Under the pieces are notes generated by a model. It was given only the letters and a program-made list of their open reading frames with translations, made no database searches and was not told the DNA's origin. Shown here in pieces: positions 18,093-49,600 of a stretch of 51,585 bases of DNA (its first letter is position 1; each line of letters starts with the position of its first letter). Source of the DNA: Psammoneis japonica (taxonomy: Eukaryota); the NCBI GenBank assembly GCA_008632985.1, contig QPGO01000065.1:372001-423585 (forward strand). Direction: 5' to 3'. The translations under genes were made by a program, and so were the position numbers.

Positions 18093-18132
18093 ATGGCACA
18101 GACAAAGAGAGTGAGTGCAACGACGACTTGGC

Positions 18133-26094: not shown

Positions 26095-27109
26095 GGCGGA
26101 TGATGGTACGGATATGATGTGCAATGGACTCGTCGCAAAGAGAAAATTATGAGAGCAAGGAATGAGCAGACTGAATGAGCAGTCACGGGAAATTTACGGA
26201 CATGAGTTGCTGGCGGCATTTATGAACCACCAGGACGCGTCTCCTTTTTTCCCTCCGACGTTTGTTGCAGACAGAATCGGGAGTGTGTTTGATGTATTTG
26301 ATTTTTGTCCAACGAGTTTGTGCGTCAATTGATGAGTGAAGGAGCCACGGTCATAACATCCCGTTCGTCGACTCGCGAAAAGCCTTGTGCTGGACTCTGT
26401 CATTAACAGCCGACAAAAGTATGGGGTACAATTACTATGTCACTTCTCGGATCTGGAAACGAATGTTACCCTCACTTGTTGTAATCTGACTGTGCGCTGC
26501 TGCTTTGTAGAACGTCGAACCTGCTCATCGTCTCATCGTCAAGTTTCTTGGAGCAAATTTCCAAATTCTCGAATTTCAAAATCACATGTGGACGAGAGAC
26601 ATGCCACGTGGAAGCAAAAACGTTCATCTGTATTTTGATTTCGCACCCAAACAAACCGCCAAGCGAACTCACAAGGATACAGTGCCCTCGGTAAACACAC
26701 ACCCACCGTTCTCCTCTCTCCTCTCGCCTTGACTTACCTCAGTAGTCTATTTTAGGGCTACCGGTACAAGCTTTATTGCTAAAGGCTTACCTGGTATCCT
26801 CAAGCACGATACGAATGCCATTCTACCACTAGGGCCCTAAGACACGTGGCAGAATGATGCCTGATGTTCGCCACGAGAACGCTGTGGGCTGGACTCTGGC
26901 GCATCAATCCGCGCAGACGCACAGAGTGTTGAAAATCCTCAAGTAAGTGTTGGAACTCATTCTCCAGAATCATCCGGCCTCGGCTTGAATTATGATAAGG
27001 ACGACAAGGGTGATCTTCCTATATCGTTTGATCCCAATTTTGGTGGTGGTCTACATGCAAACGAAGAAGAACAGCAACGGAGGAGCTCTCTTTCCAAAGC
27101 TGTTTTGTT

Positions 27110-27410
27110 TAATCAAGGCCATGCGGTTTGGAAAGCTCCATGCATTCGATTTATTTGCACGTATGGAATTGATTCAATGTGCAGTAATGCAATACCCGGA
27201 TGAACTGCAACACATCGATCATACAAAAGGCAACACGCCTCTTCACGTGGCATGCATGGCTCCTCCAGTGCTACAAGTCGGATGCTGTTGTAGTGGGTTG
27301 ACGAGGATGCGACCGGCTGTCTTTTTGAAACAGCATCCCGAGGCGGCCAAGGTGCGAAACCGTGAGGGACAATTTCCGCTGATGGTTGCACTGGAGCACA
27401 GCAAGGACGA
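27110..27410 (+). pseudogene. Ankyrin-like repeat gene fragment
   Basis: QYPDELQHIDHTKGNTPLHVAC...LKQHPEAAKVRNREGQFPLMVALE. Confidence 0.65.
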
Positions 27411-27531
27411 TGCGGAGCACGCGGCTGCATCGTTGGCTGGGTTATCTTTACGCCAGTGGTGAGCTCACCCTAGCTTTTGTTCTGTGCGTGTTCCGTTGTC
27501 AATGCTTGCCAATACCCACACTTTCCTGTCA

Positions 27532-28345
27532 GGTGCAAAAATCAATGATGAAGTTCGATAACGTAAAACAGGCGGCTCATTCGGACTCTTCGTTTACCGC
27601 TGGGCCTCTCCGTGCAGCAAGAAGAGCAACCAGTACAATACAGCACGCAGTGGATAGGTGGGTCTTAGTGTTGCGAATTGTGGACGTTGACGCACACCAC
27701 GGAAATGTCGTAAGTATTTGATGGGTAGTGTCTTGGTCTTGATTCGAACGATTCTCACAGAGTTTATTTTCTTTTGTTTTCGGTGGACGGAAGAAATTGT
27801 GAAAAAGTGCTACGACCCGGGGAGGCTGTTCTTCTTTTATATCCACCTCTATGACAACTTCAAGAGAAGAGGCAACGCTTACAAGCTTTACCCGGGGAGT
27901 AGTGACGCTCACAATATCATCAACGTCCCTATCACTCCGCTGTGGAAGCAACAATGAGATAGCCCCTCGCAAGTTCCGGCTGCTCCCAAAACATTTCACA
28001 ATACACGCAGAAAAGTGAAGGAGGCGGCCGCCGCCGCTACGTTCCATCCACCACCACCCTTCGGGGACAATTCCGCACCGTTGTCATCTCCTCTACCACC
28101 AATAGGCGATTCTCCGCGAGATTTTGTGGGGGCTATGAATCGTCGTCGGAGCATGGGGGTGGAGGTCTCGAAAGCGCTCGAACAAGTGACGTAGAAAGTG
28201 TGTCTCAAAGAAGTGCAACTGTTACATCAAAGCCGGGGAGTGCACGGTTCCTTTCTGGATCTGGGCGGCATACGTACCGACCGGCAATTCAGCATCACCT
28301 CTTACCTGCTCTCCGTGCTTTCAACCCCGGTCTTATCTTAATCAG
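27532..28345 (+). pseudogene. Class II-type histone deacetylase fragment with an internal deletion
   Basis: SDSSFTAGPLRAARRA..QHAVDR joined almost directly to IVDVDAHHGN (the RPPGHHA segment is missing), an intron, then TEEIVKK...IHLYD...YPG...INVPI and LLPALRAFNPGLILIS. Confidence 0.88.
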
Positions 28346-28359
28346 TGTCCACGATGCGT

Positions 28360-29445
28360 CGCCTCACGTTCTCTCCAATGAACCGCCGTCCGAAGGAAGT
28401 GCACCGCGTCATACGCAATTTCTGGATCTGACCAATGGCGAAGGAGGAGGCGGTGAAAGCTCGTTTAGCCCAGAGAGTACAGCAGAAGAACTTCGGCCTG
28501 AATCTACAATTACTAGTCCTACTGCCAGCAGTATGAAACGTCCCGCACGATTTGACCCAAACACGCCCGGTAGAGTGGTGGGTGGTGGAAGCTGGCCAAG
28601 AACTCACGGGGCGCTGGACTCGAGAAGATCACGAAGCGTTCCTTAGCGCTCTTCAACTGAATGGGAAAGAATGTAGAAAGGTAGCAGCCAAGGGGAAGAC
28701 GAGAACGGTGGTTCAGACAAGGACTCATGCGCAGAAGTACTTTCAGAAAGTAGATACGGTGATGAATGGTGCGGAGGGTAAAAAAGGAGAAGTCGCGCAT
28801 GTTGAAATGGGGGTCGCCGTAGAGGCCAAGAAGGCCAGTGCACAAAAGAAGAAACGTTTACCCCGTCAGCAGTCTGCTTCGACTCAGGCAGCCGCGCATC
28901 TCATGACTAATTTGTCATCGGTGCCTCAAACTGTAGCGTCGGTGAGTCCGTATGCTTCTTGTGGCGTTCCCGCTACCCATGGTTCGGGTCACTTTCCCAA
29001 TCCTCATGGATTCTCCACATCGTCGTCGGGAGCGCCGAATGAGCAACCCCTCCGACAACTGTATTCAGTGTCGTATCAAGGGGCTTTGGGCCAATGCAGA
29101 TTAAGGCTTGTGACCCAGATTCTGCCTTTGCGCGAGGAAAATTCCCGAACCATCACCGGCAGCGTGTGGGAAGAGGAAGGTGGCAGAGATTGCCGCGGCC
29201 CGAATGCTTGCCGATGTGGCGGCGAGTGGGGGTAGCACAGGAAAGGCAAAGAAGAAGCTCTCCTCTCTTGCGGGTGACGAAAGTCCACCTCCTCATGATG
29301 CTGAGAAGGGTCCGGCTGCTAGACGCAACGTGGCAAAGGGGCTCTCGCTTCAGATCGTGAACCCCGAGTCTCTGGGTGTGCCGCATTCGGGAAACAAGAA
29401 AAGGAGGGGTATAGATGGAGAGGCTTCTCCGACAACTCCGTGGGA
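28360..29445 (+). pseudogene. SHAQKYF-class single-repeat Myb transcription factor, degenerate fragment
   Basis: TGRWTREDHEAFLSALQLNGKECRKVAAKGKTRTVVQTRTHAQKYFQK. The conserved YG and W positions are substituted, and the fragment is fused to an HDAC piece upstream and a FEX piece downstream. Confidence 0.88.
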
Positions 29446-29454
29446 TGTGGTCAG

Positions 29455-30320
29455 TGGCCTTTTTGGAAGGGATATGACGATTGGATATTGATCAGTCTCC
29501 TTGGTTTCTTGGGGATGCTCTTTGTTTCTTTGGGATTGTTGGGGAGTGGCAAGCACAAGTACAATGCGCAACTGTTTGCGTTGTACAACACACTCACACC
29601 ACAACAACTTTTTCTTCTGCATTGAATCAAGTACAAATTGAAGCCTTGGAGTATGTTTTTCCATATGCAAGGGAGAAATGAATGTCATGGATCATTACGT
29701 CAATGATGGACGTGATCTCGGGACGGAATAACGACCCAACAATAACGATGATTCCTTGTATGATTTGAATTTTACACAAGAACAAGATGATGACGAAGAA
29801 CGAATTCATGTAGTGGTGCATCATCAAGATGACGACAACGAGAGTGACGAACTTAACAACAAGAAAAAGCAAGACGTAGAGTTGAGTACCATTCGAGAAG
29901 CAGACAAACCCAATAGCTCAAGACTGTAATGACAAGGAAGACGACAAGGACGCTGTCGTGGGCGTTCTTTCGAGGAGTCGACTCAACTACGTCGTCTCGC
30001 GTCATTACACGCAATGGCAATGATCCCTGTCGGGACAAAGCCATACTGCTACCACCGAAACCCCGTCGAAGGCAAAGGATTGGAACAAGTTTTTCACAGT
30101 GTGTCGGTGTCGGCCATGAGCTCCGGCTTGTTATTAGTATTGGGATTTCGGACGGGCTTTTTTGGAGCGCTTTCCAGTTTTTCCTCGTGGAATTCCAGCA
30201 TGGTGATGCTGTTGCAAAATGGATGTATTGGACAAGCCGTGGTGGGATACGCGATTGAATTGCAACTACCCATTGTATCGTATCGGTTTTACCATCATGC
30301 GGCGTTGTATTTGTTTGTTT
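29455..30320 (+). pseudogene. Fluoride exporter FEX/CrcB-family N-terminal fragment
   Basis: LVLG(F/L)RTGFFGALSSFSSWNSSMV...VGYAIELQLPIVSYRF resembles the CrcB GxxTGFxGxLTTFSS motif. Upstream hydrophobic GYDDWILISLLGFLG segment. Stops and frameshifts present. Confidence 0.75.
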
Positions 30321-30789
30321 GAAGATGTCGGCGTGAAACCAGACGAGAGATGAGCGACGAGAATGTGGATTGCGATGGATCTCTGTTGCTGGTAAATCAG
30401 AGTCTTTGAGTTCCAAACCTTAATAAGAACGACATTGACGGAAATAGATAGAGCAAGCCTCTGGATTTCTAGTCCCGGGGCGCAAACAACGAAGCTGGAG
30501 CCACAAAATACGCACACTGTCATACAACTAGAGCACAATTCATTTGCCAAAACCCATCATCCGAATTGATCAAGCTTCCAATCATACGGTACATAATGAA
30601 AGCTCTAGCGTAGAATAAACATTGCATCCACTCAATTCCGTTAGGTTCAAGGTTTCTTGTACGTAATGAAAATCGATTCAAGCAAGGCGAGGCCGCTTGG
30701 TTTCGATGCGCCGCTGCTGTCATCCACAGGACTGAAGAAGTGCTTGGCGGTGTGCTGATGCGTTACCTGCAAATTCTGTAGCAACACGC

Positions 30790-33200
30790 AATGTTGCAGT
30801 TGGTGCATCTACCTCTGAAGAGAGCTTCCCATGCATGGAGGGGCATTGGGGGGCTTCAGGAACCAGCTCACCAACATCCCACCCCCCAACAACCTCCCCC
30901 CCCCACACACAGCCATCAGCAACTCATCAATGGCAGGGACCCAGCCAGCAAACCCCCCATGCTGACTCCAGCACCATTGTCAACACCCACACACCTGCCA
31001 ATCTAATCCTCCATCTTCATGCCCTGCTTTTCCTTCAGCACCATCATCATCTCCAACACAAGGCCCAGCCCTTCCAATGACAGCTTGGCCCTCCATCTGG
31101 AAAGTGTTGTTGCTCTGGTTCAGAGTTGATCTGTGCTTGACAACAACCCTGTGTTCTCATGTTCTCAACAAGTGCTCATCAACTGTGTTCAAAAAAATGT
31201 GTTCAAAAAGCCTTCAACAACTGAGCCAATCAGCAAAAAGTGGGAAACAATGCTTGACAAAATTTTGTCTTGCAGTGCATTTGATCTTGACAAGAGATCA
31301 ACTTTGCAAACATTGACAACAATTCTTTTTATGACCCACATTGTTCCAACAATTGAGCCAGTTGGCAAAGCAAGAAATGACAATGAATGAAATTTTCGAC
31401 TTGCAAAGAGTTTTGTTTTTAACAACAGCACATCATTTGCAGCAACATGCTGTTGTGACTCATGTCTGTCAATGCCCACATCAATTCACCCCATTAATTT
31501 GCTGTTGCCCTCCTGGCTGTGTGTGGCTTGCAATTTGATTTGTGCACTCTGTGATTTAGATTTTCTGCACTGAATTATGTTGCAGTCTGTTTCTTGCTCT
31601 CTTTTCTCAAGCCCTTTGCTGTCTGCACATGATGCCACCCTCTTGCAGCTGCACTTGCATGACACTGTGGTGCTCTGCAATTCTGGTGTCCATGAGGATC
31701 TTCTGTCATTTCACACTGTGACCTCACACACTCTTGCTTTTGTTGAAAAGTTTGCTGGGTCAACCAAAGCTTTGCTCACAAAAAAAGAAGAGGGCGCAAC
31801 AATTGTCAATTCTGGATGTGTTTCATTTTGAATCATCTTTGCTTTTTGGCACAGCTTCTGCTCACCTTTCTGCATCCCCTGCGGCACTGTCTTCCCATCT
31901 TGCTCAGCTTTCATGTCGACATGCCTGAGCTCCAAGATTGGCAAAAGTGTCAATTGTTTGCATTGTTCTCATGCATGCATGCTTTCACACCTCACATCCT
32001 TTCTCTTGCCTCAGCTTGCCTCTTGACTTCATTTGGCTGTGCCCAGCCCTTTGCTCTGCTGTTGCCTTCCTGCAAGGCCATCATTGTCAGGATGTTGGGT
32101 GGGCTCTCCTGTGTTTTGCATTTTGTGTCTTGTGAGGCAGTGATGATTTGTTGTTGCACCCACACCAAGCCAGTCAGCCAAGGTGATCAGCATCTGTGTC
32201 ATTGTCTGGCCATTTTTTTTTCCTCCATGTTTGCCTGCGCTGTTGCAGGCTTCAATGATTTGAGCTGACTCAAATTTGCAGTTGTGTCAGCAGAAGATCA
32301 ATGTCTCAGTTTTTGTCACACTTGTGTGGTGTCTTTGCAGGACAGCAGAGCAGATGCCCAATGCAGTCAGTGCACTTTGTTTTCATGCAGCACAAGGCAG
32401 CAGAGCAAGACAAAGACTTGCACTTGCAGCCACTCTCCTTTGCACGTCTCCTGGCCCAAGAAAAAATGCTTGCACAAACCATGGGAAAGAGAGTGCTTTT
32501 TCATTGTGACCACCAACTCTTCCTCCATTGGACAAAGCTTCTTGGCGGTTGCAAAAGCCAAGCTTCTTCCATTTCCTCCAAATCCAGTGCATCAAAGTGG
32601 CACGCCATGCTGTCATCATTGTCAAAGAAAGCTCTGCATCATTGTCCATGTCAATGTGGGAAGAGGACAAGCGAGAACAGTGATCCCTTGACAGTGAAGA
32701 GCAAGGGAGCATGTCAAACTTCTTCAAAAAGAAAACAGCACATCATCATGGAGTGGTGTGCCAATGTTGGACATCTCTCAAGCAAGAGAGATGGCTTCAA
32801 GCTGTGCTCAGTCTCAGGCAAGCACCAAAATCACTGCTGCCATTGCAAAGTCACTCACCACCATGTTCATTGGCAGAGAAATTGCTGTCATTCACCCATT
32901 GAGATTCTTGGACAGTGGCAGGAGGAAAAAAGAGGGGGGACAAAAACAATGGATCATCACCGTCGAGAAGGACAGGGGGCTGAATCCATCAGCACCCAAG
33001 CCAAGGGAGTGGTTGACAGATCCTGACTGACCCAACGAGCACGGTGCAGCAGCATTGCTTGAGGAGCCAATGGGAGAGGGAGGTGAAAGAGCACTAGGGA
33101 CATGTGCTGGGTGTCCCTTTTCACTTGATGTTTTGCTTGCTCCTGAGCCTCAGGGCGGTGTGGTGGAGCAACAGCTGTCAAGAAGAAGGCTGGCGAAGAA
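30790..33200. mobile_element. TpA- and CpG-depleted domain D, probable decayed transposon-derived insert
   Basis: No TA seen between about 31578 and 33094 and very few CG. The minus-strand EEELVVTMKKHSLSHGLCK is only weakly reminiscent of CACTA/Plavaka-type transposase N-termini. Confidence 0.5.
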
Positions 33201-33279
33201 AACTACTGTAGCATGTCTCAGGCATTCTCTTCATCATCAGCATACGTTTGTATTTGCTTTATTTTCTTCGATTGTTTTA

Positions 33280-35448
33280 CTACATCAACAGAGAATAAGG
33301 TCCGAACCTGAGTGGGACTGTGTCCAAGAAAATCCAAGTCATGGCGCCCACCCTTTTCGATATGCATGGCAACGTAAAGCTCCTCGTATACATTTGCTAC
33401 TCGAGCAGCAATCTGGGACTGAGCACGTTTCCTCAGAATGGGATCCTTAATGACAGAGTCGAACGATGGAATGGGAGGCGAATAAAGAGACGCATAGAAT
33501 TCGCGAATACACGTTTGAACCTCTGGAGGTGAAAGACCAGGCTGTGATGCCATCGTCATGCCTTCAACATGAACTTGTTGCATACGAGTCCATGCGACCA
33601 ATAGAGAGCCCAATCCTACAAGCTCCAATACTTCTTTCGTGTCATCTTCGACCAAGGCATCAATCAATGCTTGTTCCTTATCGGAGATCAAGCGATTGAA
33701 TCTGTTCGTCACCTCTTCCTTGAGCCCAGCCTTCTGGACCACCAACATGGAAGACTTGATAGTCACGGCGTCACCCAAAGACTTGCAAGATGACAAAGCA
33801 GCTTCAACCAGCGTCTCGCAGAGAAACTCCAGCGATAGGGATACTTCAATGCCAGTCGCTCCCCGAAGGACAGGGAAGGTCAACTGAAAATCCCGGAGAT
33901 GTTTTGCGCCTCTGTGATTTCTGCCATCATATCGTGTGCCATAGATGCTTCCGATTCTCCAGAGATCATGGTAAGTGACTCCAACTTTGCTCCGTGGACA
34001 CGAATAGACGCAGCATACGCATGGGACCCTTCCTGCAAGCACTCAAGGACGGCTTTCACAAGAGGGCTCTCGTGTAGTTCGTCTCCGTCATCGTTGGTTG
34101 AAAGCTTTTCATAGCCTTTGAAAATGCGGAATGATAGAAAAGCAAGAGACCGCATATTGAGTACAAGGATGATACACGAGACCGAGACGCCATCTGCTCT
34201 AGCTCTTTCATTCGTCTTGGTCTCCGTCCTCGTGTTGAGGGCGCTTGGCCAGAGAAGCAATAACCTGAAGGATTCTTGACTTGAGTGGCCTGGATACCCC
34301 ACTCATGGCATACGCCAAAATCTCTACAGCGGACATTGGCTTCTCGCCGCCAAGCATATCGGTATCCTTGTCGCTGCGGCTCGGTGTAGAAACTTCATCT
34401 TCATCGTGCGGAGGCTTGTATTCAACGAGACCACGGGCTACATCCGCTTCGACGTTGTAGGAGCAAAAGACATGAACCAACATATCCCCAACATAATTGA
34501 CGGGATCGTGCGCTTTGACTTCAAAAGGGGGCATTCCATTGTAGGCAGAAGTCAACGCCAAGAGGAATGGTCTCGTCTCTTCTGATCTTCTGTATGTAGC
34601 AATCACCTCGATCAAGTGAGATTAGAAAGCGGGCACATCCATTCCCAAAAACAACAAAGAAATTGCTTGACAAAGTCTAGGCACAGCGCTTCGTCCAAAG
34701 CATCATCATCCACTGGTTTCTGCGGCTGCTGCGACTTGTAGATTCAGATGAATTTGCAACCACTGATAGAGCCGCTCGTATGCTCGTTCCTGTTTTGAGG
34801 CCAACGACTCCATCATTCTAATAGTAGAAGTAGCACCGAGACTTTGCTTAATCGAATCAGTGCCTCCCTGTATTTCTATATCCGTTCCACACGTTTTGCT
34901 CAACTCATGCCGAATGGTACGGACACTACCCAAAGCCTCGAGAAACTGCATACCTCTCGTGTCAAAGTCGTCAAAGGCGTACTGATCCAGCAAGAGCGAC
35001 TCGTTCTCGGACAAGATTTCGTTCTTCAAACGCTCTTGCCAGTTCAGCCGCTAGTTCTTCTTCACCTCCTACTTCAGGCGACGACTCCTCAGATTTTGCT
35101 TCTGACGAGGTAGCTCCACAGTCCACAGGTACCGGTCCTGAACACTCGCACTCGCTTCACGCCCAGTCGACGCTGTTTCTGTGACACTTCGCCTCAAGTC
35201 CTGAACTGTCTTGACAAGATTCTGAAGTTCCTCTTGCATTGAAAGAGCATGTGCCAGAGCGTCCGCTTCAATCGCAACTCGCACCGTCGCACCGACCGTG
35301 AAGAATCAATCACGGGCATATGCGCCAGTGCTTCTAACGCTGCCTTCATTGCTGCCGTATCTGTACGAACCTCCAACGCACGAGATACCTTGTTGGCAAG
35401 GATATCGGCACCCGTAGATGCGGTGGCGTTCTCATCGTTGTCGGCCAT
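33280..35448 (-). pseudogene. COG6: Conserved oligomeric Golgi complex subunit 6, multi-frameshifted
   Basis: ILANKVSRALEVRTD, MESLASKQERAYERLYQWLQ, FLLALT..PFEVKAHDPVNYVGDML and GHSPTQVRTLF, spread over at least five frames. Some frameshifts could be sequencing errors. Confidence 0.85.
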
Positions 35449-35519
35449 GGTTCACAATTTAGTAGCATGCAGAAAACGGCTTGCGTGTGCGCGGCATAAC
35501 ACCACGAGATCGGGACGAA

Positions 35520-38370
35520 CGAGTCGATCGATTCAAATTTCATCAGAACAACCTCCCGCAGGAGTGTCCAAAGATTGTGATGGGCAAAAAGCACCAAACG
35601 CCAAACACCACCGGAATTTGGTGAATCAACTTGCACTGCAGCTGCATTTTGAATTTGTTTGCGGTTGCACACTGCACCCCAGCGCAAGAGCTCAATCTTT
35701 CTCAGCCTCTCACTCGACCGCCGCCATGTGCACTGGAGATGCTCTGGCATCTTCAAGTCTTTCATGCACTGGCTGCAAACCACACAACACTCAAACAATG
35801 TGCTCAAGGACGTTGCAACAATTTGCACTTAACTTGAACTCTCATCAAAGATCAAAGGCACCTTGCAATCAAAAGAGCTGCTGTGTGAAGATCTGCCACT
35901 CCAGCCAACAAAACTGACACACGCTGGGGCTTGTGCCACCCCCCCCCCCCCCCCCAACACCAGCAAAAACACACCAACCCACAATTGTCCTCCAAAGCCA
36001 CTGCTGCAGGAACAGGAAAAAGGCACTTTGCTGTGCCAGCCCCAGTGTCTGAAACTGAATCTTCATCATCACAGTGAAGCACAAAAGTCAACCAGCTCTC
36101 ACAGCTCTCAGCTGCATTCAACCAGCCCCAGCTGTGCACAAAAGTGATTTGTGCTTTGGCACATCTCACCAGCATGATGTGGCACACATCCTGGCAGCAA
36201 CAGTGCTCTGTGCAGGTGGGGGGGGGGTGTCTGCCATTGGTTTGAGGAGATTGACACAGCGCACTGATTTGGTCTCCAGGGGTTCTCTGGTTGCCACACG
36301 TGGCACACAAATGATTGTGTGCCTCAACTGGATTCCAGCAGGGCAAGCTCTTTCTGCATTTTGTCATTTTCATCTGCTCACCTGCTCACCAAAGGCTGCT
36401 GTTGTGCTTGTTTGAGCTGTGAGGTGGTTGATCATCTTGTGTTGTTGGCTGTTTCCATCTTGCACTGTTGGCTGTTTCCAGATGTTTTGTTTGGCTGGGC
36501 AGCTTGCAATCATTGTGGTGCATCATTTTTTGGCCATTGCACTTTTGGCTGAGTGCATGCTTTCTGAGCAAAACTGTGCAACAGAGCCTGCCTTGGGGAC
36601 AATTGTGACACACTTGCACTCATCAGACAGGCTTGACATGTGGGCCAAACAAGGTGTCCCTGTGAGTGCAGCATCTGGCTGTTGCCGTGCAAGTTGTTTT
36701 CATGAAATTTGCAGTGCCTCCCATCATCATCAGGTTTGGCAGCACCTTTCTGATCAGCAAATCCTTTCTCGTTGGACATGTGCTGAATGACATCTTCCAA
36801 AGAATCAGTGCTGACATCCTTTCCAGCACGTGCATGATTCTGTTTCCACGTCATCGGCATGCCTGTAAACATGATGTTCTTGATCTGCTGCTCATTGAGC
36901 AAAGGTTCAGCTCCAGGTGGCTTGTCAGCACAACGTGACATTTGAGTCATCCTGTCAGCATGCTCGCGAGGAGAATCACCAAAAGGTTTAGAAGAATTTT
37001 TCAAAAATTCAAACATCGCATCACGTGCTTGATGATCGCAGCATCGCTGACAAAAGCGTGCGATTTCCACATCAAACCTGGCCATTGTCCGATCTGCTTC
37101 CGTGACACCCGAAACCAAGTTGCTCCATGCGTCTTGAGCATTGTCTTCTGACACTTCTTCAAAATGGGTGAATTTTTCAGGTCCTTCATCACAATCCAAA
37201 CACTCGGCACAGTTTTCAAAACGCTCTGCAGCGCAGAGCAAACACTTGATGCCGCACTTGCCGGTGAGCTGAGGGCACATTTTCTGTTTCTCAGTGCCAT
37301 CATCGCAGCTCTGTGCGAGTTTCACTTTGTCCAAATCTCCGTGTTTGAAGGTTGGTTTGTGTGCAAAGCACGGTGCTCTCAGCGAAGCTCTCACCAAGTG
37401 CGACATTGCGCTTGAGTTAAAGGATGCACAGCAAAGAAAAGAGAAGGAAAGAACAAGACACAGTGTGATCACAGTGAACGGTCTTGACAAGTTGTCCACG
37501 AATGCTTTCTAAAAATTGTGGGAAAAGCTGCAATTGACTGCAGCCACAGTGTTCGGGTTTCTGTCACAGAATTTCTTCGAGGTGTCAACAATCCGGGTCA
37601 CTCGAATCTCCCGAATCTTGCAGCTGCTGACGCAATTGTGACGCAGAAGTTTGCTTCACAGGTGTCCTCAATTCCGGGTGACCAGGGAGACCCGCGTAGA
37701 GTCCCACACAATTTTTGTTCCACATGTCTTTCACAACACACCGCAAAGACCAACCATGAGCACCGGCCGCACTGTCACCATCACCCGCCATGCGGTGCCG
37801 GCAAATGCCAAGCGATGCGCAAGCGAACCACCTGGGGCCCTAAAGAGGCTGGTCGCAGGCCCGCTGCAAGCACTTGATGTCACAATGGTGAGCTCAGCAT
37901 GTCTGATTGGGGGGGAAAGACAAAGAACAATCATCCTTCGACGGATCGAAAAGGTCGTGCAAACATTGATGTCGGTTCGCTGCAGCATGTGCTGGTTTTG
38001 TGCAGATTGGTCGGAGACATTTCTGCACGGACTCTCCTGCGGAAGTGCATGACCTTGCATGCGGTGCATGGGTGTTTTGATGATCCTCGTGTTTGAAGAG
38101 TCTAAAGAAACGAAACCAGCTGTTGTCAGTGCACGCGTGCTGGCCTGTTCGTTCGCACCAGCAGCAGCCGCACTCGCCCCTGCAGGGATGGTGAGGGAGT
38201 CCAGTGACAAAGTTTGCACCACCCCAGGAACGCAAGGGAAACAAGTGCGGCAGTTTGAACAGTCAGCAGAACCACAGCGACAAAGTTTGCAGCCCCCCGT
38301 GAACCTCGCGAAAAGTTTGCAGCCCCCCAGGAAAGCAATGGCGCGGCGCGGAGGAACCACCGCGAAAAAG
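35520..38370. other. TpA-depleted domain E
   Basis: TA nearly absent and CG partly depleted. Contains the gag relic, and the right edge falls inside a tandem array. Confidence 0.88.
36510..37406 (-). mobile_element. gag: Ty3/gypsy-type LTR retrotransposon gag relic
   Basis: KFTHFEEV...AQDAW...ARDAMFEFL...KP..SPREHADRM..MSRCADKPPG...LNEQQIKNIMF.GMP.TWKQNH.RAG resembles stramenopile gypsy gag. Zero Tyr in the 329-aa ORF. No pol or paired LTRs found. Confidence 0.75.
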
Positions 38371-38640
38371 TTTGTAGCCCCCAAGGAACCCCCACGAGAA
38401 AGTTTGTAGCCCCCCAGGAATGCAATCGCGAGAAGTTTCTAAAGCGTCAGGAATCATGATGGAAAACTTTGTAACCCCCCAGGAACCCCCGCGCAAAAAT
38501 TTGTATCCCCCGAGGAACCCCGGCGAGAAAGTTTGTATCCCCCCAGGAACGCAATCGCGAGAAGTATGTCAGCCAGGAATCACAATGGAGAACTTTGTAT
38601 CCCCCCAGGAACCCCCGCGAGAAAACTGGTATCCCGCGGA
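38205..38640 (+). repeat. Minisatellite of ~30-32-bp units (aaagtttgtagccccccaggaacccccgcg) with a ~130-bp higher-order period
   Basis: About ten recognisable units between 38209 and 38635. Resembles transposon subterminal repeats. Confidence 0.88.
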
Positions 38641-39276
38641 TGGCAATCTTGCTAGACTACAGAGCTTAATATTGCATATGGGATTCAACGGATGTGAAGT
38701 ACGTATATATTTATGCTTTAGGATTTGTATAAAAACTATTAAAATAATTAAGATATACACATCTTATATAAAAGCGAGAATGACCCTCACCGAAATTTTA
38801 ACGCGAAAAACGACACGGCCATGGCGATGAAAGCCGCTCGCGTTGCTCCACAGTTTGATATGCTACAAAACCAAGGAATGAATCAACGCGTATTATTACG
38901 TAGATATTAAATTACAACAATGTATACGATCGGTGGTAACCTTGGTACTCAACTCGAAGGCGTACTCTTGACACCAAAAATGACGCCCTGTAGAAACCAT
39001 ACAAATTCTACACAGAAATGAAATCACCAATCAACGACCCTGTTACAAACGGCGACCGGCAACGCTACACAAACAACCTCAGCAATCAACCAACATGTCA
39101 CGAGGTTTGTTAGACAATGAATGAGACGACCCTATCAATAAAAGTGCCATACCACACAAACGGCGACGACAGTGAGCGGGTCATTGTCGATGATGGCGTA
39201 TTTATGCGACTCGATGGCCACGGATTGAGATTTCACGCTGTGGGGGTAAAAGCGAAGACACACGGGCAGACGAAAA

Positions 39277-39299
39277 ATGCATGACCTTCGGTCATGCAT
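39277..39299. other. Perfect hairpin at the duplication breakpoint
   Basis: atgcatgacc-ttc-ggtcatgcat (10-bp stem) ends where copy 2 of the duplication begins. Confidence 0.8.
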
Positions 39300-40099
39300 A
39301 GAGGAGGGAAGACATTTCTACACTTAAAAGGGGGGAAGAAGGGTCATTGCTCTTTGTTACGTTTGCTGTCAGTTGACACTTTCCTCATGGATTCTCATGG
39401 ATCCTCTTCCTACAAATCTACGAGCGGAACTGAGTAGGGCGGAGCAAGGTCACTATTACAAAAAGTCATTTTCATATACTGCGTTTGCTTCGTATAAAGT
39501 ACGAGAGAAAGTCATTCAATTGAAAAAACGGTCATTTTCTCAGTCATCCACACGAATCCACATGGTATAAATCTACGTACGAGAAATCAACGGTCAATGC
39601 GAAGAGTCATTCTCTAAACTCCGATTCCTTCGTACAATGTACGTGAAAAGTCATTGAAAATTTCAAAATTTCCATGAGGATGACTGAGGATTCGTGAGGA
39701 TCCGTGAGGATCCGTGAGAAAAAAAACACACGACACAAACCCGACCCCCAGGTCGCTGTTATGAGCTTAGCATCCAACGCCGTCGCGATCGCTGCTTTCT
39801 GTGGTTGTACTAGTACGTAGGTGTCGTGTGACTGAACCGTCACTTCAGCTGGGATCGAAGACATGTCGAGACCGCGACGCTGTCCCAGCCGACGGACAGT
39901 GGTCCTTGCTACGACAAGAACAAGAAACCCTGCCAAATCACCGATTTCTTTGGATTGTTGGATGCCCCCCAATAGGAAGCGGTGACAGGAGTAGCTGTGG
40001 CCAGTAAGGAGGACAAGATTGATGACTACCAGCTCCATACCTGCCTCAGCAACCTGAGTTCGATACCTTCCCGATGGCAGCCCAGAGCCCCGCGGGGTG

Positions 40100-41171
40100 G
40101 CGATGTCACGCCGGGACAACATATTCCACTCAACATGGAGAAGATCGAGGCCAATCGTAATTTTGCAAACAAGCTTTGGAATTGTTGCAAGTTTGTAAAG
40201 GGCAGCGCTCTGAGAGACTTGAGCGAATCGAACTTATCTGAGCGGAGTGTAGATGGACCGATGACAGAAGAAGAATTCAATGCTCTTTCTCTACCGGAAC
40301 GCTATATCATCACGACATGCCATCGTCTTGTGGTTTGGTGACGGATGAAATCGAGAGGTACCAGATAGTGGCTGCTGGAAGCAAGGTGAGCTTCTAAAGA
40401 CAGACAACGAATCTGGAAATGGCTGTTATCTAACTGAGACACCGCTCATTGTTTTTACAATTCTATGGGTTTTTTGTGGAATCAATATGCAGACTGGTAA
40501 GTTGAAATTTCGAAGACTCACCTTTACGAAGGAGCAGGAGCAGGCGAAAAAAAGAGGACGCTAAAGCGCCGCTCGACGTGTTCTTGTCTGTGTTTTGGAC
40601 ACGAGTTTGCGTCTGCTACACCCCTAAATGCCTTACGTGACTGAGACTTGCGGATTGACCTCGGATGGAAGCTGTAAGAACTTTCGAATGTTTTCAGGCT
40701 CTTATTCGAAGTATCCGTAACGCGAGGGCTGAGTACAACGTTAAGTCGGGGAGCGAATCAGGGCAACTGTAGTCGCGAGCGAAGATCTGCTTGAGGATAT
40801 TGAAACAGAGCTCAAATCTCTTTTTGCTCTTGCTAAGCTCGACCCGGATAAGGTAGCTGTGCATGCAGCTGGAAGTAAAGATGCCAAAGAAACGATGGAG
40901 ATTGGCGAGTCTGTTAAGATTGTAGTCCAAGATGGCGTTAAAGCGAATTTGCCGCTCTCGGGATTGATTGACGCTGAGAAGGAACGCCAGTGGTTGCAAA
41001 AACAAAGCGAAAAGCTGACAATGGAGATCCAGAAGCTTACATGGAGATTGAAGTCCAGTGGATTTGTTGATAAGGCACCTGCTGCTGTAGTACAGCAAGC
41101 CAGGATTAGCTTGCAACACTGGAAGATCAATTTTCCTAAATCAAAAGCAGCCTTTTGGCACTTCCCAAGTA
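40100..41171 (+). pseudogene. valS: Valyl-tRNA synthetase C-terminal fragment, copy 2
   Basis: Same motifs and stops as 23405-24474. Confidence 0.92.
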
Positions 41172-41674
41172 GAACTCTCAGATTTCGTCTTATCTATATA
41201 TCTCTCTCTCTAGCTAGTTCAAAACTAACTTCACGTCTTCTTCCCCAGATTTAATGATTGAGGAAGGGGTAATGGCAACTGAATACTGAACAAGACACAT
41301 TGTCAAGAACAGAATAAGGCGAGCGAAGCTTACAATTGAACAGCCGACTATTACAAACTACTCTCCTTGGTAGAGGGAGTTTTAGCATTACTTTCGAACA
41401 TACAAACTTAGTCGATTGCAATTGTACGACGTCGATGGACGTTCCTATGCCAGAATTGCAAAATATGCTTTGTAATGATGTTCAATATTCAGTATATCTC
41501 AACTTGACTACGGTAGCATAGTACTCTACAGAATAAGGCAATCAAAGGGAACCGCCGACTATTACAAATTACTCTCCCTCGTGCTCATCGAGGGAGCATT
41601 AGTATTAGTTTCAAACATACATACATGTGCTAGATGGACGTTGCTAGAGGGCCCAGTAGCAACAACATCGCGAC

Positions 41675-42790
41675 TTAGGCAAGACGGGTCTTGCCTTGTT
41701 CCTCGCGACCGCGAAGCTTCAGCTCCAGCTCCAGCTCTGCAATGCGCTTAACGAGGAAAGCACGATCCGCATCCTCACAAGAAGCTGCTTCCTCGATGCG
41801 AGGCATGGTGCGAGCACGCTTGGAAGGGGACTCAAAAGAGCTGGCATCCTCTGCCTCAGCAATGCTTGGAGATTCCACAGTGGGTGGCTTCCTACTAGAC
41901 TTGACAGGGGTGGGAGGCACACGCGCGCCCCATTCGAGGAGGCCAATGTAGGTTGCAAAACGTTTGGCGAGTTCCCAGTGCTTTTCGTTCGGGCGGCGGA
42001 AGGCGAGGATTTGAGCGGGACCGTAGGTTTGAACAAACTCCGGGTCATCAAACGGAAGCGAGCGGAAACGTCGGTCTCTTCCCCACCCCAGTTCTTCACA
42101 GCATACATGAGATCCTCGATTGCGTCGACACTGTACTTGAGGTAAATGTCCATCGCAGACCTAACCTTGAGCGCAGCCGGGACATCTGACGCATGAAACT
42201 GTAGCAGCAACGGCTCAATATCTGCGCCGACTGGAACTGTCCCCAAAAAGAAGGTGTGAGCGTTCCACTCGCGGGTCAAGTCGTTGTGTTCCGCCCTCCA
42301 CTCGTTCTCAGATTCTTCGGCCAGATTAATCGCGTCGTCCTCGCGCTGCAGCTCCGCCTCCATCATCGTCACAGCAGCCGTCGAGCGCGCCAACCGCTCG
42401 CGATCTTCGGCCTCGGTAGCCCTTGCTTCAGCCAACGAAGCTGCCCGCTTTCCCCTCGCCTCGACAGCTGCCGCCTTCCGCTGGCTCAAACGTAATCCTT
42501 CGGCCTTGCTTGCCCTGCGGTAATACGACAAACAGCAATACCAAGAGGTGAGTATCCTCGGAACCTCAGAACAAAAGTCGGTGCGAATTAGCAATCATCA
42601 GCACAAAAACTCACTCGAATTTCGCGTCGTACTCTCGCCGCACGGTCACAGGGTTCCTCGTCGAGTTTTCCAGCACGACGTTCTTCGCCCTCTCCTCCGC
42701 AGGAAGCAATACATGGGTGCCGAGCGTCAGGAGAAGAGCCTTCTTCCACTCCTCTTGCGCGTAAAACGTTGGGCTGAACCTCATGGACAT
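41675..42790 (-). CDS. Orphan spliced gene, copy 2
   Basis: Same as 24979-26094 but with a different single frameshift, near 42065. Confidence 0.65.
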
Positions 42791-44229
42791 GGCGGATGAT
42801 GGTACGGATATGATGTGCAATGGACTCGTCGCAAAGAGAAAATTATGAGAGCAAGGAATGAGCAGACTGAATGAGCAGTCACGGGAAATTTACGGACATG
42901 AGTTGCTGGCGGCATTTATGAACCACCAGGACGCGTCTCCTTTTTTCCCTCCGACGTTTGTTGCAGACAGAATCGGGAGTGTGTTTGATGTATTTGATTT
43001 TTGTCCAACGAGTTTGTGCGTCAATTGATGAGTGAAGGAGCCACGGTCATAACATCCCGTTCGTCGACTCGCGAAAAGCCTTGTGCTGGACTCTGTCATT
43101 AACAGCCGACAAAAGTATGGGGTACAATTACTATGTCACTTCTCGGATCTGGAAACGAATGTTACCCTCACTTGTTGTAATCTGACTGTGCGCTGCTGCT
43201 TTGTAGAACGTCGAACCTGCTCATCGTCTCATCGTCAAGTTTCTTGGAGCAAATTTCCAAATTCTCGAATTTCAAAATCACATGTGGACGAGAGACATGC
43301 CACGTGGAAGCAAAAACGTTCATCTGTATTTTGATTTCGCACCCAAACAAACCGCCAAGCGAACTCACAAGGATACAGTGCCCTCGGTAAACACACACCC
43401 ACCGTTCTCCTCTCTCCTCTCGCCTTGACTTACCTCAGTAGTCTATTTTAGGGCTACCGGTACAAGCTTTATTGCTAAAGGCTTACCTGGTATCCTCAAG
43501 CACGATACGAATGCCATTCTACCACTAGGGCCCTAAGACACGTGGCAGAATGATGCCTGATGTTCGCCACGAGAACGCTGTGGGCTGGACTCTGGCGCAT
43601 CAATCCGCGCAGACGCACAGAGTGTTGAAAATCCTCAAGTAAGTGTTGGAACTCATTCTCCAGAATCATCCGGCCTCGGCTTGAATTATGATAAGGACGA
43701 CAAGGGTGATCTTCCTATATCGTTTGATCCCAATTTTGGTGGTGGTCTACATGCAAACGAAGAAGAACAGCAACGGAGGAGCTCTCTTTCCAAAGCTGTT
43801 TTGTTTAATCAAGGCCATGCGGTTTGGAAAGCTCCATGCATTCGATTTATTTGCACGTATGGAATTGATTCAATGTGCAGTAATGCAATACCCGGATGAA
43901 CTGCAACACATCGATCATACAAAAGGCAACACGCCTCTTCACGTGGCATGCATGGCTCCTCCAGTGCTACAAGTCGGATGCTGTTGTAGTGGGTTGACGA
44001 GGATGCGACCGGCTGTCTTTTTTGAAACAGCATCCCGAGGCGGCCAAGGTGCGAAACCGTGAGGGACAATTTCCGCTGATGGTTGCACTGGAGCACAGCA
44101 AGGACGATGCGGAGCACGCGGCTGCATCGTTGGCTGGGGTTATCTTTACGCCAGTGGTGAGCTCACCCTAGCTTTTGTTCTGTGCGTGTTCCGTTGTCAA
44201 TGCTTGCCAATACCCACACTTTCCTGTCA

Positions 44230-45040
44230 GGTGCAAAAATCAATGATGAAGTTCGATAACGTAAAACAGGCGGCTCATTCGGACTCTTCGTTTACCGCTG
44301 GGCCTCTCCGTGCAGCAAGAAGAGCAACCAGTACAATACAGCACGCAGTGGATAGGTGGGTCTTAGTGTTGCGAATTGTGGACGTTGACGCACACCACGG
44401 AAATGCCGTAAGTATTTGATGGGTAGTGTCTTGGTCTTGATTCGAACGATTCTCACAGAGTTTATTTTCTTTTGTTTTCGGTGGACGGAAGAAATTGTGA
44501 AAAAGTGCTACGACCCGGGGAGGCTGTTCTCTTTTATATCCACCTCTATGACAACGACAAGAGAAGAGGCAACGCTTACAAGCTTTACCCGGGGAGTAGT
44601 GACGCTCACAATATCATCAACGTCCCTATCACTCCACTGTGGAAGCAACAACGAGACAGCCCCTCGCAAGTTCCGGCTGCTCCCAAAACATTTCACAATA
44701 CACGCAGAAAAGTGAAGGAGGCGGCCGCCGCCGCTACGTTCCATCCACCACCACCCTTCGGGACAATTCCGCACCGTTGTCATCTCCTCTACCACCAATA
44801 GGCGATTCTCCGCGAGATTTTGTGGGGCTATGAATCGTCGTCGGAGCATGGGGGTGGAGGTCTCGAAAGCGCTCGAACAAGTGACGTAGAAAGTGTGTCT
44901 CAAAGAAGTGCAACTGTTACATCAAAGCCGGGGAGTGCACGGTTCCTTTCTGGATCTGGGCGGCATACGTACCGACCGGCAATTCAGCATCACCTCTTAC
45001 CTGCTCTCCGTGCTTTTAACCCCGGTCTTATCTTAATCAG
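44230..45040 (+). pseudogene. HDAC fragment, copy 2
   Basis: IVDVDAHHGN, IHLYDNDK..YPG and LLPALRAFNPGLILIS. Confidence 0.88.
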
Positions 45041-45054
45041 TGTCCACGATGCGT

Positions 45055-46142
45055 CGCCTCACGTTCTCTCCAATGAACCGCCGTCCGAAGGAAGTGCACC
45101 GCGTCATACGCAATTTCTGGATCTGACCAATGGCGAAGGAGGAGGCGGTGAAAGCTCGTTTAGCCCAGAGAGTACAGCAGAAGAACTTCGGCCTGAATCT
45201 ACAATTACTAGTCCTACTGCCAGCAGTATGAAACGTCCCGCACGATTTGACCCAAACACGCCCGGTAGAGTGGTGGGTGGTGGAAGCTGGCCAAGAACTC
45301 ACGGGGCGCTGGACTCGAGAAGATCACGAAGCGTTCCTTAGCGCTCTTCAACTGAATGGGAAAGAATGTAGAAAGGTAGCAGCCAAGGGGAAGACGAGAA
45401 CGGTGGTTCAGACAAGGACTCATGCGCAGAAGTACTTTCAGAAAGTAGATACGGTGATGAATGGTGCGGAGGGTAAAAAAGGAGAAGTCGCGCATGTTGA
45501 AATGGGGGTCGCCGTAGAGGCCAAGAAGGCCAGTGCACAAAAGAAGAAACGTTTACCCCGTCAGCAGTCTGCTTCGACTCAGGCAGCCGCGCATCTCATG
45601 ACTAATTTGTCATCGGTGCCTCAAACTGTAGCGTCGGTGAGTCCGTATGCTTCTTGTGGCGTTCCCGCTACCCATGGTTCGGGTCACTTTCCCAATCCTC
45701 ATGGATTCTCCACATCGTCGTCGGGAGCGCCGAATGAGCAACCCCTCCGACAACTGTATTCAGTGTCGTATCAAGGGGGCTTTGGGCCAATGCAGATTAA
45801 GGCTTGTGACCCAGATTCTGCCTTTGCGCGAGGAAAATTCCCCGAACCATCACCGGCAGCGTGTGGGAAGAGGAAGGTGGCAGAGATTGCCGCGGCCCGA
45901 ATGCTTGCCGATGTGGCGGCGAGTGGGGGTAGCACAGGAAAGGCAAAGAAGAAGCGCTCCTCTCTTGCGGGTGACGAAAGTCCACCTCCTCATGATGCTG
46001 AGAAGGGTCCGGCTGCTAGACGCAACGTGGCAAAGGGGCTCTCGCTTCAGATCGTGAACCCGAGTCTCTGGGTGTGCCGCATTCGGGAAACAAGAAAAGG
46101 AGGGGTATAGATGGAGAGGCTTCTCCGACAACTCCGTGGGAT
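45055..46142 (+). pseudogene. SHAQKYF-class Myb fragment, copy 2
   Basis: GRWTREDHEAFL...RTHAQKYFQK in ORF 45247-46110. Confidence 0.88.
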
Positions 46143-46697
46143 GTGGTCAGTGGCCTTTTTGGAAGGGATATGACGATTGGATATTGATCAGTCTCCTTGG
46201 TTTCTTGGGGATGCTCTTTGTTTCTTTGGGATTGTTGGGGAGTGGCAAGCACAAGTACAATGCGCAACTGTTTGCGTTGTACAACACACTCACACCACAA
46301 CAACTTTTTCTTCTGCATTGAATCAAGTACAAATTGAAGCCTTGGAGTATGTTTTTCCATATGCAAGGGAGAAATGAATGTCATGGATCATTACGTCAAT
46401 GATGGACGTGATCTCGGGACGGAATAACGACCCAACAATAACGATGATTCCTTGTATGATTTGAATTTTACACAAGAACAAGATGATGACGAAGAACGAA
46501 TTCATGTAGTGGTGCATCATCAAGATGACGACAACGAGAGTGACGAACTTAACAACAAGAAAAAGCAAGACGTAGAGTTGAGTACCATTCGAGAAGCAGA
46601 CAAACCCAATAGCTCAAGACTGTGATGACAAGGAAGACGACAAGGACGCTGTCGTGGGCGTTCTTTCGAGGAGTCGACTCAACTACGTCGTCTCGCN

Positions 46698-49600
46698 AAC
46701 CCCTCCGACAACTGTATTCAGTGTCGTATCAAGGGGGCTTTGGGCCAATGCAGATTAAGGCTTGTGACCCAGATTCTGCCTTTGCGCGAGGAAAATTCCC
46801 CGAACCATCACCGGCAGCGTGTGGGAAGAGGAAGGTGGCAGAGATTGCCGCGGCCCGAATGCTTGCCGATGTGGCGGCGAGTGGGGGTAGCACAGGAAAG
46901 GCAAAGAAGAAGCTCTCCTCTCTTGCGGGTGACGAAAGTCCACCTCCTCATGATGCTGAGAAGGGTCCGGCTGCTAGACGCAACGTGGCAAAGGGGCTCT
47001 CGCTTCAGATCGTGAACCCCGAGTCTCTGGGTGTGCCGCATTCGGGAAACAAGAAAAGGAGGGGTATAGATGGAGAGGCTTCTCCGACAACTCCGTGGGA
47101 TGTGGTCAGTGGCCTTTTTGGAAGGGATATGACGATTGGATATTGATCAGTCTCCTTGGTTTCTTGGGGATGCTCTTTGTTTCTTTGGGATTGTTGGGGA
47201 GTGGCAAGCACAAGTACAATGCGCAACTGTTGCGTTGTACAACACACTCACCCACAACAACTTTTTCTTCTGCATTGAATCAAGTACAAATTGAAGCCTT
47301 GGAGTATGTTTTTCCATATGCAAGGGAGAAATGAATGTCATGGATCATTACGTCAATGATGGACGTGATCTCGGGACGGAATAACGACCCAACAATAGCG
47401 ATGATTCCTTGTATGATTTGAATTTTACACAAGAACAAGATGATGACGAAGAACGAATTCATGTAGTGGTGCATCATCAAGATGACGACAACGAGAGTGA
47501 CGAACTTAACAACAAGAAAAAGCAAGACGTAGAGTTGAGTACCATTCGAGAAACAGACAAACCCAATAGCTCAAGACTGTGATGACAAGGAAGACGACAA
47601 GGACGCTGTCGTGGGCGTTCTTTCGAGGAGTCGACTCAACTACGTCGTCTCGCAATGGCAATGATCCCCTGTCGGGACAAAGCCATACTGCTACCACCGA
47701 AACCCCCGTCGAAGGCAAAGGATTGGAACAAGTTTTTCACAGTGTGTCGGTGTCGGCCATGAGCTCCGGCTTGTTATTAGTATTGGGATTACGGACGGGC
47801 TTTTTTGGAGCGCTTTCCAGTTTTTCCTCGTGGAATTCCAGCATGGTGATGCTGTTGCAAAATGGATGTATTGGACAAGCCGTGGTGGGATACGCGATTG
47901 AATTGCAACTACCCATTGTATCGTATCGGTTTAACCATCATGCGGCGTTGTATTTGTTTGTTTGAAGATGTCGGCGTGAAACCAGACGAGAGATGAGCGA
48001 CGAGAATATGGATTGCGATGGATCTCTGTTGCGGGTAAATCAGAGTCTTTGAGTTCCAAACCTTAATAAGAACGACATTGACGGAAATAGATAGAGCAAG
48101 CCTCTGGATTTCTAGTCCCGGGGCGCAAACAACGAAGCTGGAGCCACAAAATACGCACACTGTCATACAACTAGAGCACAATTCATTTGCCAAAACCCAT
48201 CATCCGAATTGATCAAGCTTCCAATCATACGGTACATAATGAAAGCTCTAGCGTAGAATAAACATTGCATCCACTCAATTCCGTTAGGTTCAAGGTTTCT
48301 TGTACGTAATGAAAATCGATTCAAGCAAGGCGAGGCCGCTTGGTTTCGATGCGCCGCTGCTGTCATCCACAGGACTGAAGAAGTGCTTGGCGGTGTGCTG
48401 ATGCGTTACCTGCAAATTCTGTAGCAACACGCAATGTTGCAGTTGGTGCATCTACCTCTGAAGAGAGCTTCCCATGCATGGAGGGGCATTGGGGGGCTTC
48501 AGGAACCAGCTCACCAACATCCCACCCCCCAACAACCTCCCCCCCCCCCCCACAGCCATCAGCAACTCATCAATGGCAGGGACCCAGTCAGCAAACCCCC
48601 CATGCTGACTCCACCATTGTCAACACCCACACACCTGCCAATGTGCAGCCCCACACTTCATCTCCAACTGCTCCATCTTCATGCCCTGTTTTTCCTTCAG
48701 CACCATCATCATTCCAACACAAGGCCCAGCCCTTCCAATGACAGCTTGGCCCTCCATCTGGAAAATGTTGTTGCTCTGGTTCAGAGTTGATCTGTGCTTG
48801 ACAAGACCCCGGTGTTCTCATGTTCTCAACAAGTGCTCATCAACTGTGTTCAAAAAAATGTGTTCAAAAAGCCTTCAACAACTGAGCCAATCAGCAAAAA
48901 GTGGGAAACAATGCTTGACAAAATTTTGTCTTGCAGTGCATTTGATCTTGACAAGAGATCAACTTTGCAAACATTGACAACAATTCTTTTTATGACCCAC
49001 ATTGTTCCAACAATTGAGCCAGTTGGCAAAGCAAGAAATGACAATGAATGAAATTTTCGACTTGCAAAGAGTTTTGTTTTTAACAACAGCACATTGTTTG
49101 CAGCAACATGCTGTTGTGACTCATGTCTGTCAATGCCCACATTGGTTCACCCCATTAATTTGCTGTTGCCCTCCTGGCTGTGTGTGGCTTGCAATTTGAT
49201 TTGTGCACTCTGTGATTTAGATTTTCTGCACTGAATTATGTTGCAGTCTGTTTCTTGCTCTCTTTTCTCAAGCCCTTTGCTGTCTGCACATGATGCCACC
49301 CTCTTGCAGCTGCACTTGCATGACACTGTGGTGCTCTGCAATTCTGGTGTCCATGAGGATCTTCTGTCATTTCACACTGTGACCTCACACACTCTTGCTT
49401 TTGTTGAAAAGTTTGCTGGGTCAACCAAAGCTTTGCTCACAAAAAAAGAAGAGGGCGCAACAATTGTCAATTCTGGATGTGTTTCATTTTGAATCATCTT
49501 TGCTTTTTGGCACAGCTTCTGCTCACCTTTCTGCATCCCCTGCGGCACTGTCTTCCCATCTTGCTCAGCTTTCATGTCGACATGCCTGAGCTCCAAGATT

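Follow-up and report, generated by a model that had tools for sequence, protein, structure and literature searches.

What sets the limit of a hypermutated tract, the sequence of its targets or the place in which they lie? The question is raised by a minisatellite in a 51,585-nucleotide stretch of DNA from Psammoneis japonica (GenBank assembly GCA_008632985.1, contig QPGO01000065.1, positions 372,001 to 423,585 of the forward strand), hereafter the window, from whose first letter all coordinates are counted. The array forms the right border of a domain that has lost nearly all of its TpA dinucleotides, and along its length the units pass from a state in which one site reads CA to a state in which the homologous site reads TA. 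We consider it probable that the edge of the domain, inside the array, is a limit of TpA hypermutation and that the CA units arose by conversion of TA units. Our confidence differs between the parts of this reading: the conversion of the CA units is very likely, and the chances are about even that the edge is a limit of in situ targeting and not a structural join made later. The features on which the argument turns are the following.

38209-38652, plus strand: tandem array with units of about 32 bp and a four-unit higher order of about 129 bp.
38209-38365, plus strand: left part of the array, with CA-state units u1, u3 and u4, a divergent u2 and an irregular stretch at 38329-38365.
38209-38243, 38281-38310 and 38311-38344, plus strand: the CA-state units u1, u3 and u4, respectively, as placed by unit alignment.
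38366-38652, plus strand: right part of the array, in which units u6 to u14 are in the TA state and comprise two four-unit higher-order copies and one partial unit.
35498-38374, no strand assigned: TpA-depleted domain, 8 TpA in 2,877 bp, with an excess of CpA/TpG.

Like other minisatellites, the array consists of head-to-tail units with a common consensus, here with a period of 30-32 and up to 7.7 copies; Tandem Repeats Finder divides it into 38269-38328 (period 30) and 38352-38611 (period 32, 6-8 copies). The sequence aaagtttgCA heads three units, which start at 38209, 38281 and 38311 and have their CA at 38217-18, 38290-91 and 38320-21. From 38366 onward, seven units (u6, u7, u9, u10, u11, u13 and u14) have ttgTA or tggTA at the homologous site, the T lying at 38375, 38407, 38472, 38504, 38536, 38598 and 38630, and u8 and u12 carry TA at other sites (38440 and 38565). 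The switch from CA to TA takes place within 53 bp, between 38321 and 38375, and the 278 bp to its right hold nine TpA. The CA-then-TA order within one array, to which the initial annotation drew attention, is therefore confirmed, with CA at 38217, 38290 and 38320 and the first TA at 38375. That the three CA units should be the leftmost among 10 scorable units is one of 120 arrangements by simple arithmetic, a figure that treats as independent units that are not, since u3 and u4 are adjacent near-copies. No further copy of the array was found inside the window.

The TpA depletion that surrounds the CA units is stronger support than their order. From the density of TpA in undepleted DNA (821 in 19,599 bp of the window), about 120 would be predicted between 35498 and 38374; 8 are present, and approximately 93% of the expected number has been lost. 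The 1-kb windows at 36001-38000 have a rho TA of 0.03-0.06 and a rho CA+TG of 1.55-1.93. The dinucleotide profile of the entire window contains a series of such sharp-edged domains, with TpA at 0-0.1 of expectation and CpA/TpG at 1.5-2.0, and these domains are of two kinds, one in which both TpA and CpG are lost ("both") and one in which CpG is kept ("TA-only"). None of the rows below has a strand.

1-4800: "both" domain, TpA and CpG depleted.
30801-33200: "both" domain, TpA and CpG depleted.
35701-36900: "both" domain, TpA and CpG depleted.
48401-50400: "both" domain, TpA and CpG depleted, duplicate of the 30801-33200 region.
10601-12800: TA-only domain, TpA depleted and CpG kept.
16601-21400: TA-only domain, TpA depleted and CpG kept.
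36901-38370: TA-only domain, TpA depleted and CpG kept.
35723-36933: CpG-poor core, 9 CpG over about 1.2 kb, lying within the TpA-depleted domain 35498-38374.

The signature is specific. In strand-symmetrised ratios TA falls from 0.61 outside the domains to 0.12 or 0.05 within them, CG falls from 1.00 to 0.11 in "both" domains, and CA/TG rises from 1.13 to 1.47 or 1.79; TA and CG are the sole losers and CA/TG the sole gainer. AA/TT is not depleted (observed/expected 1.24-1.29 in domains versus 1.14 outside), CpG stands at 0.84 of expectation in TA-only domains, and across the depleted domains TpA/ApT is 0-0.12 and (CpA+TpG)/(ApC+GpT) is 1.6-2.4. Strand-coordinated runs of CA versus TG were not detected in the depleted domains (runs test, z -1.7 to +0.9), so long one-strand deamination tracts are unsupported, and the signature fits many independent TpA hits on either strand. 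A purine/pyrimidine-coded comparison of the depleted domains with one another found no homology beyond the known repeats. In the domain that carries the array, the CpG-poor core is nested within the larger tract of TpA loss, and on a per-200-bp map its right edge (about 36930) falls within an open reading frame (ORF) described below; the two losses therefore have separate limits. We rejected the idea that a CpG-poor core is the general nucleus of TpA loss, as two TA-only domains have no such core. At 30787-30810, ahead of a doubly depleted domain, 23 bp separate the final CpG from the final TpA; CpG loss and TpA loss start together there, in contrast to the array-bearing domain.

The direction of the change can be read from a coding remnant inside the domain; a host gene lies to its left.

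36510-37508, minus strand: gag-like ORF P0002, 332 codons, first Met at 37406, with no Tyr and 6.0% Cys.
33218-35448, minus strand: host COG6 gene, several exons, with COG6_C matches.

P0002 is 64% identical to P0005 and belongs to a family of 633 relatives at E <= 0.001. One relative has integrase domains and another matches Retrotrans_gag weakly, short of the curated cut-off, and for this reason we read P0002 as the decayed gag of a retroelement. Its segment is multi-copy in sequencing run X1, where the summed depth is about 900-2700 versus about 250 over COG6; the ORF, its family and this copy number together mark the array's domain as mobile in origin. P0002 was placed in an alignment with P0005 and 60 further relatives (61 in all), the 60 being the best of the 150 listed among 633 matches. 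Tyr makes up at least 40% of nine columns; P0002 never has it there, carrying instead five Cys (TGC/TGT), three His (CAC/CAT) and one Phe, and it keeps the commonest residue at 0 of 8 Tyr columns versus 86 of 138 other columns. The Cys and His codons at these columns, TGY and CAY, are each one transition away from TAY. Because both occur in P0002, both strands have been hit, and because it is Tyr columns that have turned to TGY or CAY, TA is ancestral within the domain. Repeat identity, which is higher in purine/pyrimidine code, likewise agrees with a change from TpA to TpG or CpA by transitions on either strand. The view of the initial annotation that TA is the ancestral state and CA the derived one is thus borne out by the codons of an ORF in the same domain, and the same direction has been recorded in mutation-accumulation lines of the marine alga Bigelowiella natans, in which TpA-specific hypermutation of integrated viral DNA has been described (Mettrop et al., bioRxiv 10.64898/2026.01.13.699255). 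A pair of long terminal repeats flanking the gag remnant was not detected by purine/pyrimidine-coded local alignment (score 40 versus a shuffle maximum of 46), and a search of JGI metagenomes with the gag alignment gave 192 pattern matches with no relative among them. In the public protein library, the gag-like relatives P0044, P0147, P0088 and P0153 have no Tyr or almost none; to judge from their composition, they may be further hypermutated copies.

Other copies of the array-bearing element bear on whether the state of a unit is fixed by its sequence. We compared the window with Logan contigs of run X1 (one study) at 80% likeness, and 427 of the 585 variant places are transitions. Among the variant rows listed (40 of 610), the strings inserted at array joints include the unit AAAGTTTGCAGC preceded by CCCCTGCAAG, which combine CG->TG/CA with TA->CA; with its CA-bearing head and CpG-converted tail, this string means that converted copies of the array exist elsewhere. 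One contig of 908 bp runs collinear with the window over 38352-38624 and 38713-38849 (span 38352-38849), which places the array and its right flank in a single repeated element. That flank is a TA-rich spacer.

38653-38950, no strand assigned: TA-rich spacer adjoining the array and collinear with it in another genomic copy.

The 908-bp contig differs from the window by TA->CA/TG at 38745, 38750 and 38765; judged by these sequences, another copy of the array-bearing element is converted where the copy in the window is not. Another contig, of 250 bp, matches 36384-36633 of the doubly depleted core without a single difference. Two JGI metagenome loci that fit the array pattern (L001 and L002) were set aside as chance, being single occurrences with normal dinucleotides and no BLAST similarity to the window.

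If local sequence decided which TpA were lost, the survivors to the right of the switch should be of the kinds that resist mutation. Most of the TpA that survive in TA-only domains have a YTAR context: compared with undepleted DNA, survival is about 5% for ATAC/GTAT, 9% for GTAA, 24% for CTAC/GTAG and 63% for CTAA, with no survivors at all for ATAT and GTAC. The nine TpA to the right of the switch comprise five GTAT, two GTAG, one GTAA and one CTAA, and a rough product that assumes independence puts their joint survival at domain strength at ~1e-9. Since most of them are GTAT, a context nearly wiped out in domains, their fate tracks position and not sequence. Units in the CA state belong to types B (u1 and u4) and D (u3), both of which carry TA further to the right, so the state tracks place and not unit lineage. 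The initial annotation had proposed that targeting is positional. The GTAT survivors, the presence of types B and D in both states and the copy that is converted where the window's is not all speak for that proposal; where it falls short is in the choice between an in situ edge and a structural join.

A large duplication begins a short distance beyond the array, its junction 650 bp further on.

22600-33956 = 39299-51585, plus strand: tandem duplication of about 16.7 kb, the second copy at 39299-51585.

A second copy of the array, if present, would lie beyond the end of the window. The duplication is recent and the duplicate mostly unmutated; identity is 99.4% in the undepleted part and 97.4% in the part with the depleted domain. 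Of 40 clean, isolated differences between the copies, six are TA<->CA/TG, and two of these six, one per copy, fall where the 30801-33200 domain ends on the right (33096 and 33219, corresponding to 50741 and 50861 in copy 2), a small hint of activity at an edge that is post hoc and consists of two sites. CG<->CA/TG differences number nine, six of them clustered at 24025-24262. At 46697 the sequence has an N flanked on each side by a 958-bp duplicate, which may be a product of assembly.

A serious rival to an edge made in situ, though to our minds an unlikely explanation, is that the two parts of the array were juxtaposed or that the right part grew later. The left part would then consist of old hypermutated units, the right of later additions, and the edge would be a structural breakpoint. 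The right units could have arisen by any of four routes: (i) unequal crossing-over; (ii) gene conversion; (iii) recombination with an unmutated copy; or (iv) expansion of a few border units. Several observations suit this rival or otherwise weigh against the reading we prefer. The switch coincides with the irregular stretch at 38329-38365, made up of the tail of u4 and a headless u5, and this is exactly where Tandem Repeats Finder splits the array. The higher-order copies on the right (38352-38512 versus 38481-38638) are 84.5% identical, or 90.8% in purine/pyrimidine code, whereas left and right (38269-38556 versus 38354-38648) match at only 70.8% identity, rising to 82.2% when nearly the same stretch is put in purine/pyrimidine code; the two parts have therefore evolved apart for a long time. 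The left units also differ by transversions and by insertions and deletions, which TpA-specific mutation cannot explain, and as the element belongs to a multi-copy family, donors exist. The converted state is seen in three units only, and u3 and u4 may represent one event followed by duplication. Other edges, for example 30787/30810, are equally sharp and could simply be the ends of inserts. Run X1 and the source of the assembly may be related, in which case the run is not fully independent, and the direction of mutation measured by Mettrop et al. is applied to the window by analogy. The coincidence of the switch with an irregular unit and the transversions between left and right also weaken the notion, raised in the initial annotation, of a mutation front caught inside the array, and no observation points to movement of the edge.

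Juxtaposition has difficulties of its own. The CAG units u3 and u4 are nearest to the neighbouring TAG units u6 and u7, with which they share a common G variant, and this suggests local continuity across the switch. The rightmost unit, u14, is also divergent and has retained TA. Finally, juxtaposition leaves unexplained why the added part should be unmutated 53 bp from a saturated domain. The depletion, its specificity and direction and the position of its edge can be read directly from the sequence; that the edge marks the limit of in situ targeting we infer at about even odds.

It is improbable that CA and TA are ordinary variants of an inherited array, or chance differences, spread by duplication of units and unconnected with the process that acted on the domain. 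Three units make a small sample, u3 and u4 are adjacent near-copies and divergence between units is high, all of which would suit such an account; but CA is shared by two unit types and confined to the depleted side, ~93% of the expected TpA is gone across the 2.9 kb to the left, and the direction TA->CA/TG is demonstrated in the same domain. We give very little credence to an artefact, whether base modifications that cause TA/CG to be miscalled as CA/TG or a chimeric assembly, for although the N at 46697 is flanked by a duplicate, the 16.7-kb tandem copy could be a product of assembly and no library type is recorded for X1, a contig of that run is identical across 250 bp of doubly depleted core, many paralogous contigs differ chiefly by transitions, the TGY and CAY outcomes occur within one ORF, and the Illumina data in the preprint of Mettrop et al. 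record the same mutations de novo.

Hypermutation that stops inside the array, the reading we prefer, would work as follows. In sharply bounded domains, TpA, and in some of them also CpG, would be turned by transitions into CpA/TpG. The domain at 35498-38374 would span the decayed gag-like remnant and the DNA upstream of it and end in the 32-bp array, the three CA units being former TA units altered by TpA->CpA/TpG hypermutation and the TA units lying just beyond the mutated tract. The process would act on both strands, would be specific to the TpA step, and would find its limit in the location of the domain, not in the sequence around each target. By analogy with what is proposed for B. natans, an enzyme most likely deaminates the adenine of TpA (A->I), and the product is read as G. 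We put forward more tentatively, as something possible but short of probable, that the target is a chromatin-like domain and not a sequence, with its limit mapped to 53 bp inside one repeat, and that a second, separately bounded CpG mutator acted on the nested core.

Fungal repeat-induced point mutation (RIP) also produces domain-wide, dinucleotide-specific transitions on both strands of mobile DNA, with leakage past the repeat border possible; it converts CpA to TpA and lowers GC. The window resembles RIP in its domain-wide, dinucleotide-specific transitions on both strands of mobile DNA, but the chemistry is opposite, TpA being destroyed, and dependence on duplication is not seen, given the mostly unmutated 16.7-kb duplicate. 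Mettrop et al. cite RIP as an analogy. RIP proper is rejected for the window, as its indices are reversed in every depleted domain. Deamination of 5-methylcytosine underlies the decay of CpG in silenced transposons and would account for the CpG->TpG/CpA loss in "both" domains; the loss of TpA is beyond its reach, and TA-only domains keep their CpG (0.84). ADAR-type A-to-I hyperediting of retroelement RNA gives A->G with a 5' U/T preference, and the window is like it in this respect; unlike it, the window has an ORF with both TGY and CAY, where TA->TG on the sense strand only would be expected, and AA is undepleted. Such editing is raised in the Discussion of the B. natans preprint. Editing of a single RNA strand is ruled out here by the presence of both outcomes in one ORF. 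Pol-eta-type WA mutagenesis changes A to G at TA and AA and is rejected, as AA/TT is undepleted in the domains. A possible alternative chemistry at the TpA step would be thymine oxidation followed by mispairing of 5-formyluracil.

The closest parallel is the hypermutation described in B. natans by Mettrop et al., the one 2026 preprint from which TpA-directed hypermutation of foreign DNA is known; our literature search found no other report, and one candidate, PMC12730594, was, in its available text, unrelated to TpA hypermutation. In the mutation-accumulation lines of that study, two integrated viral regions took 231 of the 302 nuclear single-nucleotide mutations that arose de novo; all of the 231 but one were A->G or T->C, and these were all on TpA, with the Illumina data establishing de novo origin. 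The preprint reports 124 clusters that are depleted of TpA and enriched for CpA+TpG, finds TpA-poor genes enriched for reverse transcriptase (RT) and DDE domains, names an ADAT2-like protein as candidate deaminase, proposes adenine deamination, and leaves the choice of targets unanswered. Applied to 1-kb windows, its cut-offs (rho TA <= 0.43, rho CA+TG >= 1.52) select 14 of 51, including five in a row at 1-5000 and, for the array-bearing domain, the two windows on the grid at 36001-38000. As far as the text of the preprint allows comparison, TpA is lost and CpA+TpG gained on both strands in each case, the targets are foreign or mobile (RT and DDE Pfams there, a gag-like retroelement here), and depleted regions cluster on a kilobase scale. 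Since the signature matches, the underlying process is one already described for B. natans, and the window is a new example of it. There are also differences from that account: the domains of the window are near saturation (rho TA 0.00-0.12 versus 0.45 in the nucleocytoplasmic large DNA virus region of B. natans), some of them have lost CpG as well, and their edges are placed to tens of bases, one in a tandem array and one (for CpG) in an ORF. The terms CpG, boundar-, tandem, retrotranspos-, flank and spread are absent from the main text of the preprint, though its supplements may differ.

The remainder of the window is eukaryotic DNA, with ORF pieces that match COG6, Myb, ankyrin and a valyl-tRNA synthetase arm in a Pfam scan of 157 ORFs; within the depleted domains, the same scan gave one credible match, an ankyrin ORF, the remaining few being weak and under curated cut-offs. 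Rfam and tRNA scans of the window gave no matches. The putative start of COG6, an ATG at 35448, is 50 bp from the left TpA edge of the array's domain (35498); the frame is open there, and the first exon is without Pfam support. The ankyrin-repeat ORF (10718-11551, minus strand; Ank_2, E 6.6e-29) is open within a TA-only domain and has one Tyr, near its C-terminal end. The 4.8-kb TA-only domain at 16601-21400 has long open frames, as expected because TAA and TAG are gone, and no Pfam matches; relatives of its ORF 16648-17628 (327 codons) were searched for and none was found, and a 153-bp duplication with an IQ-like motif lies inside it at 17654-17960. Comparison of ORF 8578-10059 with the protein atlas returned bacterial look-alikes only and was uninformative, as were the 157-bp and 153-bp repeats when tried as additional cases of a front. 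A 187-bp satellite of about 14 copies (1054-4104) lies entirely within a doubly depleted domain. Its units are 68-75% identical in bases versus 82-91% in purine/pyrimidine code, so the differences among them are mostly transitions; as expected, these would fit hypermutation later than the formation of that array.

What the window adds to the known process is an edge finely placed inside a repeat, depletion near saturation, a retroelement target and a separate border for CpG loss. It displays the end state of the process in ORFs that are free of tyrosine, retroelements among its targets and a loss of CpG with borders of its own. A border that falls within near-identical units is an internal control, and it argues that place, and not local sequence or homology, decides the fate of a TpA. 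These findings bear on the identity of the guide, be it chromatin, methylation or RNA. If the machinery is indeed aimed at domains, tandem arrays that cross a border would be natural rulers with which to follow the targeting of this defence and any spread of it.

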